20,997 bases of DNA from a virus. The notes below the pieces were generated by a model. It had not been told where the DNA came from. It saw only the letters and a list, made by a program, of their open reading frames with translations, and did no database searches. This document shows positions 12,158-19,265 of the stretch, piece after piece. The stretch lies in UHGV virus genome UHGV-0209998; one strand, 5' to 3'. Within the stretch, counting starts at the first letter, position 1. Every line of letters starts with the position of its first letter. A program made the translations under genes and the position numbers.

Positions 12158-13186
12158 ATGTCATCAATACCTTGGATTGATAATGAGTTTGCATACCGTG
12201 CATTAGCTCATTTACCTAAATTTACACAAGTAAATAATAGTTCAACTTTTAAATTACGGTTTAGATGCCCAGTTTGTGGAGATTCAAAAACCGACCAGAA
12301 TAAAGCTCGTGGATGGTATTATGGTGATAATAATGAAGGAAATATTCATTGTTATAACTGTAACTATCATGCGCCAATCGGAATATATTTAAAGGAGTTT
12401 GAACCGGATTTATATCGTGAATATATCTTTGAAATAAGAAAAGAAAAAGGTAAAAGTCGTCCAGTAGAAAAACCTAAAGAACTTCCTAAACAACCTGAGA
12501 AGAAAATAATTAAATCTCTTCCGTCATGTGTTAGATTAGATAAACTGGCGGAAGACCATCCAATTATAAAATACGTAAAAGCTCGTTGTATTCCAAAGGA
12601 TAAATGGAAATATCTTTGGTTTACAACTGAATGGCCTAAATTAGTTAATAGCATAGCTCCAGGAACATACAAAAAGGAAATTTCTGAACCTCGACTTGTT
12701 ATTCCAATTTATAATGCTAATGGAAAAGCTGAATCTTTTCAAGGACGCGCATTAAAGAAAGATGCTCCTCAAAAATATATCACCATCAAAGCTTATCCTG
12801 AGGCAACAAAAATTTATGGTGTTGAACGAGTTAAAGATGGTGATGTATATGTTCTAGAAGGACCTATCGATTCACTTTTTATTGAAAATGGTATAGCCAT
12901 TACGGGTGGCCAATTAGACCTAGAAGTTGTTCCATTTAAAGATAGACGTGTGTGGGTCTTAGATAATGAACCTCGACATCCTGATACAATTAAGCGAATG
13001 ACTAAATTAGTCAATGCAGGAGAAAGGGTTATGTTTTGGGATAAATCTCCCTGGAAATCTAAAGATGTCAATGATATGATTAGAAAGGAAGGTGCAACCC
13101 CTGAACAAATTATGGAATATATGAAAAATAATATTGCCCAGGGGTTAATGGCTAAAATGCGGCTATCTAAATATGCCAAGATTTAA
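12158..13186 (+). CDS. 61: gp61 DNA primase (zinc ribbon plus TOPRIM)
   Basis: 342 aa; Cys4 zinc ribbon (CPVCGDS...CYNCNYH) and TOPRIM acidic motifs (VLEGPIDS, VWVLDNEPRHPD). Matches T4 gp61 from memory. Confidence 0.95.
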   Translation: MSSIPWIDNEFAYRALAHLPKFTQVNNSSTFKLRFRCPVCGDSKTDQNKARGWYYGDNNEGNIHCYNCNYHAPIGIYLKEFEPDLYREYIFEIRKEKGKSRPVEKPKELPKQPEKKIIKSLPSCVRLDKLAEDHPIIKYVKARCIPKDKWKYLWFTTEWPKLVNSIAPGTYKKEISEPRLVIPIYNANGKAESFQGRALKKDAPQKYITIKAYPEATKIYGVERVKDGDVYVLEGPIDSLFIENGIAITGGQLDLEVVPFKDRRVWVLDNEPRHPDTIKRMTKLVNAGERVMFWDKSPWKSKDVNDMIRKEGATPEQIMEYMKNNIAQGLMAKMRLSKYAKI

Positions 13187-13383
13187 ATTAGCCCAACTAG
13201 AGCAAATGCTAAATCTACGAATGTATCAAGAGTAACTACTGGAATATTAACACCATGCGCAATTGCAATTGGTGATAAAATAAAGTTCCAGAGTAAAATT
13301 CCTACCATAGCAGAAATAGTAAAAGCTATACGCTTTTTATTACCTTTTATGGCATTGACAAGTGCCATTAATTTTTGTACCAT
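13183..13383 (-). CDS. Hypothetical small membrane protein (66 aa), antisense to all neighbours
   Basis: Only convincing minus-strand ORF in the window. Minus-strand AAGGAGG sits 4 nt before the ATG (complement of 13381-13383). Hydrophobic core AFTISAMVGILLWNFILSPIAIAHGV. Its 3' end overlaps the gene 61 stop by 4 nt. Confidence 0.5.
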   Translation of the reverse strand: MVQKLMALVNAIKGNKKRIAFTISAMVGILLWNFILSPIAIAHGVNIPVVTLDTFVDLAFALVGLI

Positions 13384-13392
13384 ATGTCCTCC

Positions 13393-13419
13393 TTATTGCT
13401 TTATATATTTATTGTATGA
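13393..13419 (+). promoter_or_regulatory. Candidate MotA-dependent middle promoter for gene 56
   Basis: MotA-box-like TTATTGCTTTA (13393-13403), 10 nt spacer, -10 TATGAT (13414-13419); about 40 nt upstream of the gene 56 ATG. Confidence 0.45.
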
Positions 13420-13455
13420 TTAATCTACTAACCCATGAATTGAAAGGAAAAAATA

Positions 13456-13974
13456 ATGGCTTACTTTAATGAATGTGCTCATTTGATCGAAGGTGTTGAT
13501 AAAGCAAATCGTGCATATGCTGAGAATATTATGCACAATATTGACCCACTGCAGGTTATGCTTGATATGCAACGGCATTTACAGATTCGTTTGGCTAACG
13601 ATAAACCAGAAACAAATCGTCATCCCGATTCACTTGAAACTGCGGGAGAAGTTCTTGCTTGGTTGCGAAACCAAGACGATTATATCGCAGACGAAACTCG
13701 CGAGCTATATACTTCTCTTGGCGGTATGAGTAATGGTGAAAAAGAAGCTTCTGCTGTATGGAAACCTTGGAAGAAACGTTATTCTGAAATGCAATCCAAA
13801 AAAATTCAAGATTTATCTCCCGAAGATCAGCTTGAAATTAAATTTGAACTTATTGACCAATTTCACTTTTTCATGAATAAATTCATTGCTCTTGGAATGT
13901 CAGCTGAAGAAATCTTTAAACTTTATTATCTGAAAAATGCTGAAAACTTCGCTCGTCAAGACCGAGGTTATTAA
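13456..13974 (+). CDS. 56: gp56 dCTPase/dUTPase (dCTP pyrophosphatase)
   Basis: 172 aa; sequence MAYFNECAHLIEGVDKA...EEIFKLYYLKNAENFARQDRGY matches T4 gp56 from memory, including the conserved C-terminus. Confidence 0.88.
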   Translation: MAYFNECAHLIEGVDKANRAYAENIMHNIDPLQVMLDMQRHLQIRLANDKPETNRHPDSLETAGEVLAWLRNQDDYIADETRELYTSLGGMSNGEKEASAVWKPWKKRYSEMQSKKIQDLSPEDQLEIKFELIDQFHFFMNKFIALGMSAEEIFKLYYLKNAENFARQDRGY

Positions 13975-14163
13975 TGGCTCGTTTAAATAAACGCCAGCTT
14001 AAGAAAGCCCACAAGAAACGTATTGACAGCTATTTAAAGATTATGACAAAGAGCTCGTATGTGAGCTCTTAACTAATCAGCTTCGTATGGTTGAAGTTAC
14101 AGAAGGTCATGACGAAATTTATGTCAGTGAAGAAGCTTTAAAATTAATTATAGAGCATTCAAA

Positions 14164-14373
14164 ATGAAATTTGATTTCTACGCATGGCAAAAAGCCGGGA
14201 GACCGGCTACTCGAGCATTTGGTTCTGATGGATATAATATTAGAGCCCATTGGAAATTTAATGCTCCAGAAGATTATTCTCCGGTAATCATTAACGGCGA
14301 TGTTGTTATATTAACTAAAATCGGGTATTTTAACGTTCCGCGAGAATTTATTATAAATAATCATGTAATTTAA
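14164..14373 (+). CDS. Hypothetical protein (69 aa)
   Basis: ATG at 14164; no motif. Its 3' end contains the late-promoter box for soc. Confidence 0.55.
   Translation: MKFDFYAWQKAGRPATRAFGSDGYNIRAHWKFNAPEDYSPVIINGDVVILTKIGYFNVPREFIINNHVI
14353..14360 (+). promoter_or_regulatory. Late promoter box (TATAAATA) upstream of soc
   Basis: Exact TATAAATA at 14353-14360, 30 nt upstream of the soc ATG. I found no other exact copy near a gene start on a partial scan. Confidence 0.5.
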
Positions 14374-14389
14374 ATAAAAGGAGAATTAC

Positions 14390-14635
14390 ATGGCTAGTAC
14401 TCGCGGTTATGTTAATATTAAAACATTTGAGCAAAAATTAGATGGAAATAAGAAAATTGAAGGAAAGGAAATTTCTGTAGCTTTCCCTCTTTATTCTGAC
14501 GTTCACAAAATTTCTGGCGCTCATTACCAGATATTCCCTTCAGAAAAAGCAGCATATTCTACAGTATATGAAGAAAATCAACGTGCTGAATGGATTACTG
14601 CAAACGAAGATTTGTGGAAAGTAACTGGTGAATAA
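14390..14635 (+). CDS. soc: Soc small outer capsid protein
   Basis: 81 codons; MASTRGYVNIKTFEQKLDGNKKIEGKEISVAFPLYSDVHKISGAHYQ... matches T4 Soc from memory. AAAGGAG SD 6 nt upstream, late promoter upstream, strong terminator downstream. Confidence 0.8.
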   Translation: MASTRGYVNIKTFEQKLDGNKKIEGKEISVAFPLYSDVHKISGAHYQIFPSEKAAYSTVYEENQRAEWITANEDLWKVTGE

Positions 14636-14944: not shown

Positions 14945-15285
14945 TGTTTATCTTTAATTGGTTTAAAAATTTCTTTACGGATTTTTTCTCTACAACTCCG
15001 GGAGAAGGTGTAGTTCCTATTTCAAATGACTACCTTCCTTTAACTGTAGTTGAATATGTTTATATGGGAGATGGAACAGTAGAAGCAGTTACTATGACTT
15101 ATGAAGAAGCCCAAGAATATTATAAAAATCCTTGGCGTTGGTCAACACCTACTACATCGTCTAATACGCAGAATACACAGTCTAGTTCTGATTCATATGA
15201 CACTAATGTTCCTGTTCATGTATGGGCAGGTGATTCATGTGGAAGTTCTTGTGATTCTGGTTGTTCATCTACATCTTGTGATTGA
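14944..15285 (+). CDS. Hypothetical protein (113 aa) with Ser/Thr-rich linker and Cys-rich C-terminal tail
   Basis: ATG at 14944 overlaps the preceding stop (TAATG). C-terminus ...[47 protein letters not shown]. Confidence 0.6.
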
Positions 15286-15293
15286 GGAAAATT

Positions 15294-15779
15294 ATGGAAG
15301 CGATTTTGTTTGAAATGTATATTAGCAGTAATAACATGTCATTTGCTAAAGATGTTCCAATTACTGTAGCCGTAATAATTGATAAGGGTTATTGTAACCC
15401 TATGTATCTCGTAGAAAATTTCGTTTCAATGCCAGTTCCAGAAGATGCTGAAATAAAACTTAAAAAGATCGGAATTATTGAAACTGTACCAAATAGTCCG
15501 TTTAGAGCAATTGAAGCATTTACTAAATCCGAATACATTAATGTCAGCGCAGAACAATATAATGATAACCCTTTATCTTTTTATTCGTATGATTCAGTAT
15601 ATGACTGGAAAATAGATAAAGGAAATAAATTTATAATTGCGAGTGAAGATGCTTTATCATACTTTATTTATTATGTATGGAATAATTTAAATCCTAATTT
15701 GCTAAAAATTCATGAATTTGACGATGCTCCTACTATTGTTTTAGGTAAAACAAATGAAAGTTCTGAAGAAGATGCTTGA
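15294..15779 (+). CDS. Hypothetical protein (161 aa)
   Basis: ATG at 15294 with GAGGAAA upstream; the track start at 15282 is TTG. No motif. Confidence 0.6.
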
Positions 15780-16118: not shown

Positions 16119-16593
16119 AGTAGCAAAACATTATTCAATAGAATTTATGTCTAAAGAAGGTAAATCAGTAAATACACTTGATAAAAATTGCTCGTTAATT
16201 ATTCCTTTAGCAGAAAATCCGGATATTTTAATTAAAGATATAAAAGAAAGAAAATATCCAGAAAATATTATTCTAATTATAAAGCATACTGAAGATATTT
16301 TGCAGAATACAGATTCACCATTTTCTTCTTCTGAAGCTTTAACTATTAAAGGCTATAAAAGAGCTCACGAATATGGTCTTTTTGACCTGTTTGAAGATGA
16401 TAAAGTTAAATTAGCACTTAATTTAACAGGCCAGCCTTCTAAAAGTAAAACATTCATTATTGAAGATATTAAAGATATAAACGCATTTGTTAAGATGGTC
16501 TGGGCTCATTTTGATGTTGGACTACGTTGGAGAATGTCCGAAGAAGAAAGAAAGATTGCTGAAGCTAATCGTCATTTTGGTTTTTATCGCTAG
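16111..16593 (+). CDS. Hypothetical protein (160 aa)
   Basis: ATG at 16111 with AGGAAA upstream. No motif recognised. Confidence 0.6.
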
Positions 16594-16601
16594 GAATTAA
16601 T

Positions 16602-16784
16602 ATGGATTTATTTGAGATGTTAGAAGATAATCATTCTACGAATAACCAGAATGATTCTAGTGATTATAAGAAAGAGTACCGTATAGTATTACAGAATTAT
16701 GGAATTGAAGCCCCAGATGCTCTTCTAGAAGAACTAGCTTCATACCATCTTGACCCTCCGCCCTGGGCTCCCTGGGCAAAATAA
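16602..16784 (+). CDS. Hypothetical protein (60 aa) with Pro/Trp-rich C-terminus
   Basis: ATG at 16602; C-terminus LDPPPWAPWAK is encoded by the direct repeat CCTGGGC-TC-CCTGGGC (16761-16776). Confidence 0.45.
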   Translation: MDLFEMLEDNHSTNNQNDSSDYKKEYRIVLQNYGIEAPDALLEELASYHLDPPPWAPWAK

Positions 16785-16796
16785 TTCAAAAAGTTG

Positions 16797-16825
16797 TTTA
16801 CTTTCCTTTCTAACGATGATATGAT
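16797..16825 (+). promoter_or_regulatory. Early promoter upstream of modB
   Basis: -35 TTTACT (16797-16802), 17 nt spacer, TGa + TATGAT (16820-16825). Confidence 0.55.
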
Positions 16826-16851
16826 AGCTTCTGAAGTATATGGAGGCTATC

Positions 16852-17475
16852 ATGATTATTAATCTTGCAGATGTTGAACAATTATCTATAAAAGCTGAAA
16901 GCGTTGATTTTCAATATGATATGTATAAAAAGGTCTGTGAAAAATTTACTGACTTTGAACAGTCAATTCTTTGGCAATGTATGGAAGCTAAAAAGAATGA
17001 AGCTCTTCATCGGCAATTGAATAAAATCGTTAAAAAGCATTTAACTAAATCACCTTATCAGCTATATCGTGGTATATCAAAATCAACAGAAGAACTTATT
17101 AAAGATTTACAAGTTGGAGAAGTGTTTTCAACGAATAGAGTAGATTCATTTACTACTAGTTTGCTCACAGCATGTTCTTTTTCTTACGCTGAATATTTTA
17201 CTAAAATAATACTTCGCTTAAAAAGCGATAAAGCTTTTAATTATTCTGACCATATCAGCGATATTATACTTTCTTCTCCTAATACTGAGTTTAAGTACAC
17301 GTATGAAGATACTGATGGATTAGATTCAGAGCGTACTGATAACTTAATGATGATTGTGCGTGAACAAGAATGGATGATTCCAATTGGAAAGTATAAAATA
17401 ACTTCTATTTCAAAAGAAAAATTACACGATTCATTTGGAACATTTAAAGTGTATGATATTGAGGTAGTTGAATGA
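16852..17475 (+). CDS. modB: ModB-like ADP-ribosyltransferase
   Basis: ATG at 16852 with GGAGG 5 nt upstream gives 207 aa (track start 16840 is an upstream ATG without SD). Shares YRG and EQEWMIP motifs with the downstream paralog; position upstream of modA-srd-dda matches T4. Confidence 0.65.
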   Translation: MIINLADVEQLSIKAESVDFQYDMYKKVCEKFTDFEQSILWQCMEAKKNEALHRQLNKIVKKHLTKSPYQLYRGISKSTEELIKDLQVGEVFSTNRVDSFTTSLLTACSFSYAEYFTKIILRLKSDKAFNYSDHISDIILSSPNTEFKYTYEDTDGLDSERTDNLMMIVREQEWMIPIGKYKITSISKEKLHDSFGTFKVYDIEVVE

Positions 17476-18074
17476 AATACTCAGTAATGCAACTAAAAGA
17501 TTTTAAAATAAAATCAATGGATGCATCGGTGCGTGCTTCTATTCGTGAAGAATTGCTTTCTGAAGGGTTTAATTTATCTGAAATTGAACTTTTAATTCAT
17601 TGTATTACCAATAAGCCAGATGACCATACTTGGTTAAATGAAATAATCAAATCTCGTTTGGTTCCAAACGATAAACCTCTTTGGAGAGGTGTTCCAGCCG
17701 AGACTAAACAAGCATTAAATCAAGGAATTGATATTATTACATTTGATAAAGTCGTATCAGCTTCATATGATAAAAATATAGCTCTACATTTTGCTTCTGG
17801 TTTAGAATATAACACACAAGTTATTTTTGAATTTAAAGCTCCTATGGTATTCAATTTCCAGGAGTATGCTATAAAAGCTCTACGCTGTAAAGAATACAAT
17901 CCAAACTTTAAGTTTCCGGATAGCCATCGTTATCGTAATATGGAATTAGTTTCAGATGAACAAGAAGTAATGATACCAGCTGGAAGTGTATTTAGAATTG
18001 CAGATAGATATGAGTATAAAAAGTATTCAACATACACTATCTATACTCTCGATTTTGAAGGATTTAATCTATAA
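17472..18074 (+). CDS. modA: ModA-like ADP-ribosyltransferase
   Basis: ATG at 17472 overlaps the modB stop (ATGA); 200 aa; motifs LWRG and EQEVMIP; size and synteny match T4 ModA. Confidence 0.65.
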   Translation: MKYSVMQLKDFKIKSMDASVRASIREELLSEGFNLSEIELLIHCITNKPDDHTWLNEIIKSRLVPNDKPLWRGVPAETKQALNQGIDIITFDKVVSASYDKNIALHFASGLEYNTQVIFEFKAPMVFNFQEYAIKALRCKEYNPNFKFPDSHRYRNMELVSDEQEVMIPAGSVFRIADRYEYKKYSTYTIYTLDFEGFNL

Positions 18075-18132
18075 TGGAAGGACTTAGATTCATTATACCA
18101 TGAAATTTTTAAAGCATTTTTACATAAAGTTG

Positions 18133-18161
18133 TTTACAAGCCAAGGTAAAAATGTTATAGT
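18133..18161 (+). promoter_or_regulatory. Early promoter upstream of the srd-like gene
   Basis: -35 TTTACA (18133-18138), 17 nt spacer, TGt + TATAGT (18156-18161); a second TTTTAC lies about 15 nt upstream. Confidence 0.55.
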
Positions 18162-18196
18162 ATAGTAGTCAACCGTCCGTAAGATGTGAGAAAAAT

Positions 18197-18952
18197 ATGA
18201 AACTACATAATATGTCCAAAAATCAAATTCGTAAAATTACACGTCGTTTAGAGCATACTCAGGCATCTGCAAAAAGACGTTCTAAAGATTTTAACTTAGA
18301 CTTCAATTACATTAAGAACATTTTAGATCAAAAAGTTTGTGCTTACTCGGGAGAACCTTTTGATAATCGTATTGAAGGTGAGAAATTATCGTTAGAACGT
18401 TTTGATAATAACGTTGGATACATTAAAGGGAATGTTATTGCAGTAAAGAAAAAGTATAATACGTTTCGTTCTGACTATACTTTAGAGGAGTTGATTGAAA
18501 AGCGTGATTTATTTGCTTTGCGAATTGGTCGTTCATCTGCGAAAAAAGTTCATAAACTAAATTTAGATGAAAAGAAATGGGCTAAAATCAAAAAGACTTA
18601 TAATCAAATTAAAGCTATACAGAAAAAACGTGAAAACCGAATTGAACATCTTTCTCAGCTTTCTAAATCAAAACAAACTTCTGACATTAAGCTAATGATT
18701 ATAGCACTCAAAGCGCGAATTGATGGTTCTCGCATAGCAGAAGGCGCTGAAAATGTTAAACTGAACGTTCTTCTTAAAGGCTCTGATTGGAAAACTGTGA
18801 AAAAGTTGTCAGAAGCAGAAATGCAATATGATATGTGTGATAAAATTATTCAAGGTGTAGAGCGGTATCAAAACTTATCTTTCATTGATAAACTTAAACT
18901 GAAAAGAGGATATCCGCTAGATTGTTCAATTTTTAAACTTATCCGAGGATAA
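18197..18952 (+). CDS. srd: Srd-like protein (251 aa), assigned by position
   Basis: ATG at 18197; basic N-terminus. Assignment is by size and synteny (modA-srd-dda.1-dda) only; sequence identity to T4 Srd not verified. Confidence 0.5.
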   Translation: MKLHNMSKNQIRKITRRLEHTQASAKRRSKDFNLDFNYIKNILDQKVCAYSGEPFDNRIEGEKLSLERFDNNVGYIKGNVIAVKKKYNTFRSDYTLEELIEKRDLFALRIGRSSAKKVHKLNLDEKKWAKIKKTYNQIKAIQKKRENRIEHLSQLSKSKQTSDIKLMIIALKARIDGSRIAEGAENVKLNVLLKGSDWKTVKKLSEAEMQYDMCDKIIQGVERYQNLSFIDKLKLKRGYPLDCSIFKLIRG

Positions 18953-18953
18953 T

Positions 18954-19265
18954 ATGGTTTATGTATACGCGATAGTTTACCGAGACAAAGACGGATTTAC
19001 TGCGCCAGTTCCGCTTGATGAACATCGTCCTGCTGTATTTTTTGAAAGGGAGATTGCTGATAAAGTATTTACAACTCTTAAAGATCAGTATCGACTAGCT
19101 TTAGGTATGGGAATTCCGAGATTAGTTGAAACTCCACGCAAGTTTTGGTTTAATAAAATAGAAGTTAAACATGTTAAGCCTGATGTAGACACGCAAAGAT
19201 TATATCGGCGAATTTTAGATACTGGGCGTATTGTTAGTATACCAATTGCAGGGAATTTACGATGA
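18954..19265 (+). CDS. Hypothetical protein (103 aa), dda.1 position
   Basis: ATG at 18954 after GAGGA; its stop overlaps the dda ATG (ATGA). Confidence 0.65.
   Translation: MVYVYAIVYRDKDGFTAPVPLDEHRPAVFFEREIADKVFTTLKDQYRLALGMGIPRLVETPRKFWFNKIEVKHVKPDVDTQRLYRRILDTGRIVSIPIAGNLR

Follow-up and report, generated by a model that had tools for sequence, protein, structure and literature searches.

In T4 (NC_000866), gene 61 is followed, in order, by an unannotated gap, dam, gene 56, segF and soc. A preliminary description of the sequence considered here had placed dam between genes 61 and 56 of T4, and this is indeed where the gene is found (16846-17625). T4 gene 56 is preceded by P56/69, the oriA primer promoter, with transcription starting at position 16813, 28 nt before the ATG. 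The consensus of such middle promoters is (a/t)3TGCTTtA, placed 12 +/- 1 bp from a sigma-70 -10 element (PMC2988021). In the case of T4 late promoters, nine of the 50 listed carry A at position -13, this being the commonest variant (PMC2988020).

The region between genes 61 and 56

The stretch of viral DNA analyzed here in full (20,997 nucleotides; the window) contains both genes. Since gene 61 ends at 13186 and the ATG of gene 56 is found at 13456, the gap between them spans 13187-13455, i.e., 269 bp, leaving no room for dam, as the preliminary description had held. The following features were assigned to the two genes and the region between them.

12158-13186, plus strand: gene 61 (DNA primase), 342 aa; from the ORF list and the annotation of JoYop, T4 and others as DNA primase
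13183-13383, minus strand: small conserved gene, 66 aa, phrog_2024; from the ORF list, homologues, profile and selection
13349-13378, plus strand: terminator-like hairpin, ATGGCATT-GACA-AGTGCCAT, then TAATTTTTGT; from folding and the annotation of fPS-65
13394-13388, minus strand: Shine-Dalgarno sequence AAGGAGG of the small gene, 4 nt before its ATG
13394-13395: point at which other phages carry a dam cassette, empty here; from blastn break points and junction sequences
13394-13420, plus strand: predicted MotA-type middle promoter of gene 56; from consensus match and positional homology
13406-13413, minus strand: AATAAATA, candidate T4 late-promoter-type box, A(-13) variant; from sequence match
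13456-13974, plus strand: gene 56 (dCTPase/dUTPase), 172 aa; from the ORF list and the annotation of relatives

All of the sequence features that had been claimed earlier are present in the window. The antisense ORF, whose stop codon overlaps that of gene 61 (4 nt), does have the strong AAGGAGG ribosome-binding site ascribed to it, 4 nt from the ATG, and is, as had been supposed, a lone antisense gene, namely the sole gene on the opposite strand within approximately 27 kb of early genes. No known RNAs were detected in the window (Rfam), and a scan of the interval for repeats returned only the terminator and chance matches. The interval is best read, with a probability of about 0.7, as an ordinary form of the Tevenvirinae 61-56 junction, dam-free and probably ancestral, comprising three functional layers. 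The arrangement itself is ordinary and already known: hundreds of genome records contain it, and its annotation dates back to the genome of RB69. For the window as such it is of very little consequence.

Absence of dam and the cassette insertion point

When T4 Dam was used as query in tblastn searches (E<=10), no homologue was found in the window. The full-genome search for Dam that had been proposed was run on JoYop, the closest complete genome, again with no homologue being found at E<=10 in the entire genome. In the T4 control, Dam was recovered at 1e-174 and PF02086 at 6.7e-51. A motif scan of the window found no DPPY, and the only matches to [DNS]PP[YFW] were two NPPF sequences in unrelated ORFs; this bears out the earlier statement that no ORF in the window contains DPPY.

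The absence of dam is no oddity of this phage: dam-free is the majority form among Tequatroviruses, and the other genera examined lack dam at this site. Specifically, dam is absent from the 61-56 site in T6, JK42, phiC120, RB69, S16, KPN6 and KLB31. DNA of the T4 dam type was found in 184 records, and the antisense ORF, at an identity of at least 90%, in 503 phage records (Tequatrovirus-type). Judged by these record counts, with dam-free records being taken as those containing the ORF minus those containing dam, the dam-free form is the commoner one among Tequatroviruses. A figure of 317 records covering at least 80% of the query was rejected as a dam-free count because matches up to 950 bp apart had been joined, such that dam-plus records may be included.

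The window and fPS-65 share continuous homology on both sides of 13394|13395, the point at which fPS-65 contains an insert of 1427 bp. A cassette of 0.9-1.4 kb occupies this point, exactly between the ribosome-binding site of the ORF and the MotA box, in T4, in T2 and in roughly one third of Tequatroviruses. The cassette contains either dam alone, as in T4, or a gene encoding a 186-aa DpnII-like protein of phrog_8706 and dam, as in fPS-65 and others, with dam often being preceded by the DpnII-like gene. Outgroup comparison is what points to insertion of dam, rather than deletion, as the change that separates the two forms: five outgroup genera present gene 61, the ORF and gene 56 without dam at this site. 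It is unlikely that the lineage of the window instead arose from a T4-like, dam-plus ancestor through deletion of dam, even if both forms are frequent in Tequatrovirus and these phages recombine freely. Such a deletion could be mediated by the short repeat AATTAAT, found on both sides of the cassette in T4 and fPS-65, but the product expected from clean deletion across this repeat does not match the junction in the window. Furthermore, the dam-free form packs the late-type box and the middle promoter compactly, with a related layout being seen in RB69, again in better agreement with insertion.

The presence or absence of dam at one precise point in Tequatroviruses bears on predictions of GATC methylation and of sensitivity to DpnI and MboI, as well as on methylation-sensing defenses against therapeutic T4-like phages. 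A phage of the type represented by the window should not itself methylate GATC.

The antisense ORF is a conserved gene

In the preliminary description, the antisense ORF was thought to be found in this region instead of dam and to be recently acquired or lineage-specific. Neither suggestion held. T4 contains both, with the ORF, at 97-98.5% identity, lying between dam and gene 61 and adjoining dam, while the ORF is also found in T6, RB69 and four further genera. An antisense ORF already annotated in T4 had been named in advance as speaking against the earlier interpretation, and essentially such an annotation exists in OZ209023, an automatically annotated T4 record; in the curated records NC_000866 and MT984581, the ORF is left unannotated.

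In total, the ORF was found in 693 phage records and was near full length in 687 of these. The protein encoded in the window is 100% identical to the copies in wV7, RB68, ESh31 and BYEP02, and matches the phrog_2024 profile with an E value of 1.5e-31, residues 2-66 aligning with positions 1-65 of the 65 in the profile. The same synteny, in which the ORF converges on gene 61 from the opposite strand and diverges from gene 56, is seen in the window, RB69, JK42, phiC120, S16 and KPN6, and further in KLB31, T4, T6 and fPS-65. The antisense position is common to six genera. More distant members were detected with profile E values of 1e-4 to 1e-10; the representatives examined share the syntenic place, and the distant syntenic members also match phrog_2024. 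When 1.84 billion representatives were searched with a profile, only nine matches were obtained at E<=1e-3, and tblastn searches with two new distant members returned Straboviridae records only, offering no tie to a named family. IMG/VR contributed only five loci, too few for a population-level test.

The ORF is under purifying selection (dN/dS 0.06-0.54), with variable sites at codon positions 1, 2 and 3 being distributed 8:2:13 in Tequatrovirus and 6:0:13 in Mosigvirus. Residues W32, N33, F34, P38, G44 and P48 are invariant in an alignment across three genera, and a GGAG(G) ribosome-binding site is retained upstream of the ORF in each of the six genera examined. On the strength of this comparative evidence, the ORF is a real protein-encoding gene, old, conserved and subject to purifying selection. 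The RefSeq copy of T6 contains ATT in place of ATG, and therefore strong expression of the ORF is not universally maintained. A search of the literature found no evidence for a minus-strand transcript, ribosome footprint or peptide from the ORF, and queries concerning an antisense gene between dam and 61, unannotated T4 ORFs or ribosome profiling, and the names of the ORF returned nothing relevant.

It could be argued that the ORF is no gene at all, its frame having been kept by constraints acting on the 3' untranslated region of gene 61, its terminator or the origin region. The absence of the ORF from curated T4 annotations would agree with this, as would the position of the hairpin found 3' of gene 61, which lies in antisense codons 2-12 and thus within the first codons of the ORF. 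Yet frame, length, start, ribosome-binding site and motif are all maintained across genera at 45-55% amino acid identity, even though synonymous sites are saturated across genera (dS above 1), and the peptide is kept in Mosigvirus, where the hairpin is not visibly so, as judged by inspection of one sequence only. An explanation without a gene is thus barely credible.

Predicted transcription of the interval

The hairpin comprises a modest stem of eight pairs, three of them G-C, a loop of 4 nt and the T-run tail. The 66-nt segment containing it folds with -13.8 kcal/mol (z = -2.98), and the annotation of fPS-65 lists a terminator at this very site. The combination of a G+C-containing hairpin and a T-run is that of a predicted intrinsic (rho-independent) terminator, which the gene 61 transcript would meet at 13349-13378.

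Downstream, the MotA-box-like sequence and TATGAT previously noted to face gene 56 proved to be the positional homologue of the mapped T4 promoter P56/69. The MotA box, tatTGCTTTA (13394-13403), is separated by an 11-nt spacer from the -10 element TATGAT (13415-13420), such that both the MotA consensus and the spacing rule are satisfied. Because the relaxed middle-promoter pattern recurs within the window (five matches as compared to 2.0 expected), it is position and homology that carry the assignment. The window promoter aligns with P56/69, and a predicted middle promoter of RB69, Pm:16038, is found at the same place. As such, the gene 56 promoter appears to be of the MotA middle type. A MotA/AsiA-dependent promoter at this position would start the gene 56 transcript near 13427, yielding a predicted 29-nt leader; the RNA from the T4 counterpart also serves as the oriA primer.

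On the minus strand, AATAAATA matches the late box TATAAATA (-13 to -6) at seven of eight positions and would place the start of transcription near 13400, giving a 17-nt leader. The sequence NATAAATA is found 12-22 nt before the ATG of the ORF in six otherwise unrelated upstream contexts, among them those of both the dam-plus and dam-free forms of Tequatrovirus. In the window, ATAAATA occurs three times, as compared to an expected 13.6 +/- 4, with one of the three belonging to the soc late promoter, TATAAATA, at 14352-14359. At the same time, the S16 box reads TTAAATA rather than ATAAATA, a start directed by the most ATG-proximal box of KPN6 would yield a leader that is too short, and a published HMM scan of RB69 predicted no late promoter for RB69ORF029w. 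The box in the window, moreover, lies in the AT-rich spacer of a promoter, where composition alone could yield it. Given that no sigma-70-type promoter for the ORF was found on the minus strand, and that NATAAATA is conserved at the distance expected of a late promoter, the ORF would most likely be transcribed late by RNA polymerase containing gp55.

Because, in the dam-free form, the middle-promoter spacer contains the late-type box, the two divergent promoters would overlap back to back, yet be used at different times. This raises the question of whether late transcription acts mainly through antisense RNA and/or interference between promoters, the peptide being of secondary importance. Transcription from 13400 would then occupy the P56/oriA promoter and enter gene 61, such that, late in infection, origin priming would be shut down along with the transcripts of the primase and dCTPase genes. 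Besides the overlap of the late-type box with the middle-promoter spacer, this would be in line with no terminator having been found on the minus strand 3' of the ORF, so that the RNA would run on antisense into gene 61, and with certain T4 sites being transcribed on both strands, although not at the same time (PMC2988020). In dam-plus phages, however, the late-type box is 0.9-1.4 kb from P56, and therefore the overlap of promoters is not conserved. Purifying selection at the amino acid level, the conserved strong ribosome-binding site and the invariant residues further indicate that the protein itself is selected, making it quite improbable that the peptide is of secondary importance.

The protein product and its possible role

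The earlier depiction of the ORF product as a hydrophobic, membrane-type protein is supported by its GRAVY value of 1.25, by hydropathy, which reaches 2.0 (19-residue windows) across residues 19-42, a stretch that follows five K/R residues, and by an AF2 model (pLDDT 77) with helices at residues 2-12, 16-42 and 52-63. For RB69ORF029w, a transmembrane segment at residues 21-41 has been published. Alignment, hydropathy and the AF2 helix at 16-42 concur in placing a W-N-[FY]...P motif in a central transmembrane helix. The protein is predicted to be an N-in inner-membrane protein. In this topology, the basic N-terminal helix would be cytoplasmic, the transmembrane helix (approximately residues 19-42) would bear the invariant W-N-F...P motif, and a short Pro-containing turn and short hydrophobic C-terminal helix or tail would be found at the periplasmic face. 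Searches of Pfam, NCBIfam and PDB sequences with the ORF and its distant members returned nothing above noise. A Foldseek search of viral structures with the AF2 model returned only members of the family, although a helical model of 66 aa is too small for meaningful fold matching.

Its small size and hydrophobic character are holin-like, and a UniProt entry labels the OE5505 orthologue 'Holin'. Distant members also weakly match PF11351 (E 0.1) and phrog_11161 (E 0.012), but these are sub-threshold, all such profile matches being far below curated thresholds. The two full transmembrane helices, charged C-terminal tail and lysis-gene context of a class II holin or pinholin were not found: the second hydrophobic helix is only some 12 residues long, the protein lacks a charged hydrophilic tail, ending instead with uncharged ...ALVGLI, and the gene is not part of a lysis cassette, its neighbors being the primase and dCTPase genes. 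As these phages, moreover, already possess the T-type holin, which is annotated in JoYop, assignment of the ORF product as a holin or pinholin is very unlikely.

Speculatively, the best guess is that the protein acts late and in an accessory capacity at the inner membrane, for instance in lysis timing, lysis inhibition or exclusion, and that it is dispensable in the laboratory. It is possible, although this can be proposed only tentatively, that phrog_2024 represents an overlooked late gene of T-even phages, the product of which acts at the envelope in the late phase of infection, and that the back-to-back promoters of the dam-free form serve as a middle-to-late switch. Were this so, the phrog_2024 product might, for example, tune holin/antiholin timing or exclude superinfecting phage.

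Comparison with known systems

Imm, Ac and RI, small inner-membrane proteins of T4, and class II holins bear a general resemblance to the ORF product in combining small size with a basic N-terminus followed by a hydrophobic helix. They nonetheless differ from the ORF product in showing no detectable sequence or profile similarity to it, and their genes are found elsewhere in the genome, on the opposite strand and presumably with another time of expression.

The candidate late-type box resembles T4 late promoters (gp55/gp33/gp45) in its AT-rich downstream segment, short leader and strong ribosome-binding site. It departs from them at position -13, where canonical T4 late promoters contain T, as does none of the ORF orthologues. 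In T4, the late-type box upstream of the ORF (GATAAATA) shows no overlap with P56, whereas that of the window overlaps the middle promoter. P56/69 and the promoter in the window correspond in terms of MotA box, spacing, -10 element, leader length and position, yet differ in the sequences of the spacer and the -10 element (11 nt and TATGAT in the window; 12 nt and TATAAT in T4).

At the level of the locus, T4 and the window have in common genes 61 and 56, the antisense ORF (97% identity when translated) and the terminator hairpin, and in both gene 56 is preceded by homologous middle promoters. T4 alone contains approximately 0.9 kb with dam and its promoter between the ribosome-binding site of the ORF and P56, as well as segF after gene 56, which the window lacks. 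Curated annotation of T4 thus misses a small conserved gene that is syntenic across at least six genera, and T4 proteomic and transcriptomic analyses built on that annotation are blind to the phrog_2024 ORF. The closest counterparts of the ORF are its orthologues in phrog_2024, namely, RB69ORF029w, RB32ORF030w and S16 gp16.1, which are of the same size, occupy the same antisense position and contain a predicted transmembrane segment, with no substantive difference from the ORF of the window.

The 61-56 Interval

The window comprises the early-gene region of a T4-like phage (Tequatrovirus), oriented along early transcription; overall, it is best matched by the Escherichia phages JoYop (97.4% identity across 97% of its length) and GiZh (95.6% identity across 100%). 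Examination of the stretch between genes 61 and 56 revealed a gap of 269 bp (13187-13455), and the preliminary description had correctly reported this gap, the antisense ORF, its ribosome-binding site and the promoter elements, all of which are seen in the sequence.

Features of the 61-56 region
12158-13186, plus strand: gene 61 (primase)
13383 (ATG) to 13183 (end), minus strand: antisense ORF of 66 aa, its stop sharing 4 nt with that of gene 61
13349-13378, plus strand: terminator-like hairpin, ATGGCATT-GACA-AGTGCCAT then TAATTTTTGT
13394-13388, minus strand: AAGGAGG ribosome site of the antisense ORF, 4 nt from the ATG
13394-13403 and 13415-13420, plus strand: MotA-type middle promoter, tatTGCTTTA, 11 nt, TATGAT
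13406-13413, minus strand: putative late box, inside the middle-promoter spacer (13404-13414)
13456-13974, plus strand: gene 56 (dCTPase)

Beyond gene 56, the homing-endonuclease gene segF, present in T4 between gene 56 and soc, is absent from 13974-14390, and small ORFs of 32 and 69 aa stand in its place; the window is without both T4-specific genes flanking gene 56, namely, dam and segF. In the small gene following gene 56 (13974-14072), one C is missing near 14026 relative to JoYop (ATTGA-CAGC), shortening this gene to the 32-aa ORF, as compared to 64 aa in JoYop (cm3_140). The difference is either a true frameshift or a sequencing error.

The Antisense ORF Is a Conserved Gene

In tblastn searches, the small ORF was detected in 693 phage records, in 687 of these at nearly full length. 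The T4 copy lies at 17724-17924 of OZ209023, within the 309 bp left "empty" from dam to 61 in NC_000866; it is unannotated in the curated T4 records NC_000866 and MT984581 and appears as phrog 2024 in a T4 record with automatic annotation. The RB69 copy is annotated as RB69ORF029w, with a transmembrane segment predicted at residues 21-41, and that of RB14 as RB32ORF030w. When 1.84 billion representatives were searched with a profile, only a few distant members were added, through which syntenic genes of 61-69 aa, all matching phrog_2024, were reached in phages S16, KPN6 and KLB31.

The dN/dS ratio of the small gene is 0.06-0.30 in Tequatrovirus and 0.11-0.54 between genera, where synonymous sites are saturated, with variable sites distributed over the three codon positions as 8:2:13 (Tequatrovirus) and 6:0:13 (Mosigvirus). 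Residues W32, N33, F34, P38, G44 and P48 are invariant over three genera, and all six genera considered retain a GGAG(G) ribosome site. These data mark the antisense ORF as a genuine gene of long standing. The earlier suggestion that it may be recently acquired or lineage-specific is thus wrong, being contradicted by the 693 records, the T4 copy, the synteny and the purifying-type dN/dS values.

In the T6 RefSeq record (NC_054907, around 2001-2003), the small gene starts with ATT rather than ATG behind the same AAGGAGG, and a shortened ORF is annotated from Met6; this may reflect lowered expression via AUU or a sequencing difference. The orthologue of Escherichia phage vB_EcoM_OE5505 is 63 aa long, with a 3-residue deletion within the transmembrane helix.

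dam Is Carried by a Cassette Absent From the Window

No T4 Dam homologue was found in the window by tblastn (E ≤ 10), and the DPPY motif, already reported missing from its translated ORFs, is absent in all frames. In T4, dam (16846-17625) is indeed flanked by 61 (17935-18963) and 56 (16270-16785), as the preliminary description had stated. The absence of dam at this site is not unusual. T4-type dam DNA is present in 184 phage records, as compared to 503 records (68 + 338 + 97) containing the small ORF at ≥90% identity, here used as a marker of Tequatrovirus-type genomes, such that some two thirds of these genomes are without T4-type dam. A dam-free count of 317 records was dropped because the search merges hits separated by as much as 950 bp. 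The dam-free order 61/ORF/56 is seen in T6, in the Mosigviruses JK42, phiC120 and RB69, in S16 (Gelderlandvirus) and in KPN6 (Jiaodavirus). In older enzymology, induction of a DNA adenine methylase was reported for T2 and T4 but not for T6. KLB31 (Kanagawavirus) has a mazG-like gene rather than dam in this slot (1453-1746, flanked by the small antisense gene and by gene 56), suggesting that the site accepts different inserts by lineage. As the window covers 21 kb of its own genome, the whole-genome Dam search was run on JoYop, the closest complete relative, where no match was obtained (best E 1.2) and the annotation lists no methyltransferase; this relative is thus wholly dam-free.

The insertion point was located by blastn comparison with Yersinia phage fPS-65, in which homology is unbroken on both sides of window position 13394|13395 (97% and 91%) and a 1427-bp insert separates the two sides. 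According to the junction sequences, the insert lies between the ribosome site of the small ORF (CCTCCTT on the plus strand) and the MotA box. The T4 cassette carries dam only, with its own promoter, unlike that of fPS-65, which contains a 186-aa gene and dam, a pairing probably also found in the many other dam-plus records listing a hypothetical protein beside dam. Five other genera have no such cassette here, so that it is simpler to assume an insertion within a sub-lineage of Tequatrovirus; that dam was instead lost from the locus is unlikely.

The 186-aa gene of fPS-65 (NC_055724; 1341-1901, minus strand, directly upstream of dam) belongs to phrog_8706, and the Shinka record labels the gene beside dam a "putative restriction endonuclease." Its match to Pfam DpnII, a GATC-specific restriction endonuclease, falls below the cutoff (E 0.0045; 16.8 bits against 23). 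Given this sub-threshold match beside dam, the cassette may be, or stem from, a GATC restriction-modification module.

Predicted Transcription Signals on Both Strands

The window's plus-strand promoter, earlier described as a middle-type promoter facing gene 56, agrees with the MotA consensus, (a/t)(a/t)(a/t)TGCTTtA at 12 ± 1 bp from the -10 element (PMC2988021), and aligns with T4 ATTGCTTAC-N12-TATAAT upstream of gene 56, both of which bear out that assignment. In T4, initiation at this promoter, P56/69, has been mapped to 16813, 28 nt from the ATG, as compared to a predicted start near 13427 and 29 nt in the window; in RB69, a middle promoter is predicted at the same place (Pm:16038, score 21.6). 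According to the T4 record, the gene 56 transcript from P56/69 also serves as oriA primer, and by analogy the same may hold in the window. The hairpin at 13349-13378 is the sole terminator-like site in 12800-13800 (0.5 expected by chance), folds better than 200 of 200 shuffles, and coincides with a terminator marked in the fPS-65 annotation.

Early and middle transcription is confined to the strand opposite to the small gene, and a promoter scan found no sigma-70-type promoter on the minus strand. In every lineage but S16 (TTAAATA), NATAAATA is found upstream of the small-gene ATG.

Box upstream of the small gene
Window and other dam-free Tequatroviruses: AATAAATA
T4 and fPS-65 (dam-plus): GATAAATA
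Mosigvirus: AATAAATA
Gaprivervirus, Jiaodavirus and Kanagawavirus: CATAAATA

The sequence around the box is unrelated from lineage to lineage, and in dam-plus phages the cassette end provides the box, at unchanged distance from the ATG. The T4 late promoter is TATAAATA at -13 to -6, with A(-13) as the commonest variant (9 of 50 listed sites; PMC2988020), and T at -13 is poorly conserved among T4 relatives (PMC1524935). Over both strands of the window, the late-promoter core ATAAATA is strongly depleted (3 sites, 13.6 ± 4 expected from shuffles, all shuffles giving at least 3), the three sites being located in the canonical late promoter of soc, in the box of the small gene and at 15665. The conserved box, the avoidance of ATAAATA and the T4 variants together point to a putative gp55-dependent late promoter, which would initiate near 13400 and leave a 17-nt leader. 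Two caveats apply to this reading: for RB69, no late promoter is listed here by the published HMM scan, and the T6 RefSeq copy starts with ATT. With the late box lying within the middle-promoter spacer, the divergent promoters of the dam-free form would share one polymerase-sized site, an overlap not conserved in dam-plus phages.

A second MotA-like site (TGCTTTA-N12-TATTAT; 15650-15674, plus strand) lies within a 165-aa ORF (15282-15779) matching the position of JoYop's Mrh-type gene, with AATAAATA on the opposite strand (15665-15672). This box is not followed by any ORF having a ribosome site and could be a source of late antisense RNA or a by-product of AT-rich composition.

Predicted Product and Proposed Role

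Residues 1-18 of the small protein are basic (five K/R) and amphipathic and residues 19-42 strongly hydrophobic, followed by a turn (HGxxxP) and then by a hydrophobic C-terminus that includes two acidic residues. AlphaFold2, applied to the family alignment, gave helices at 2-12, 16-42 and 52-63 (mean pLDDT 77). By the positive-inside rule, the N-terminus would be cytoplasmic. The last helix comprises some 12 residues, fewer than a normal membrane span needs, which favors an N-in single-pass topology, with the tail interfacial or re-entrant, over a true hairpin. Searches of Pfam, NCBIfam, the PDB and folds yielded no relatives outside the family.

In UniProt, one orthologue (vB_EcoM_OE5505) is named "Holin." This identity is judged improbable, as a charged C-terminal tail is missing, the gene does not neighbor lysis genes, and these phages already have the T holin; the unsupported name may propagate through annotation transfer.

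From its predicted location and timing and the kinds of function established for other small membrane proteins of T4, the product is tentatively proposed (probability roughly 0.2-0.3) to have an accessory late function in the inner membrane, affecting lysis timing, lysis inhibition or exclusion at the envelope. As a secondary possibility, the transcript might act as antisense RNA or by promoter interference, although this would leave the selection on the peptide unexplained.

Comparison With Known Phages

Of the preliminary interpretation, the assignments concerning dam and promoter type stand, but the novelty of the ORF does not. The same arrangement can already be found, annotated, in hundreds of public genomes, T6 and RB69 included. 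What value remains lies with T4 itself, whose curated reference annotation is without this conserved small gene.
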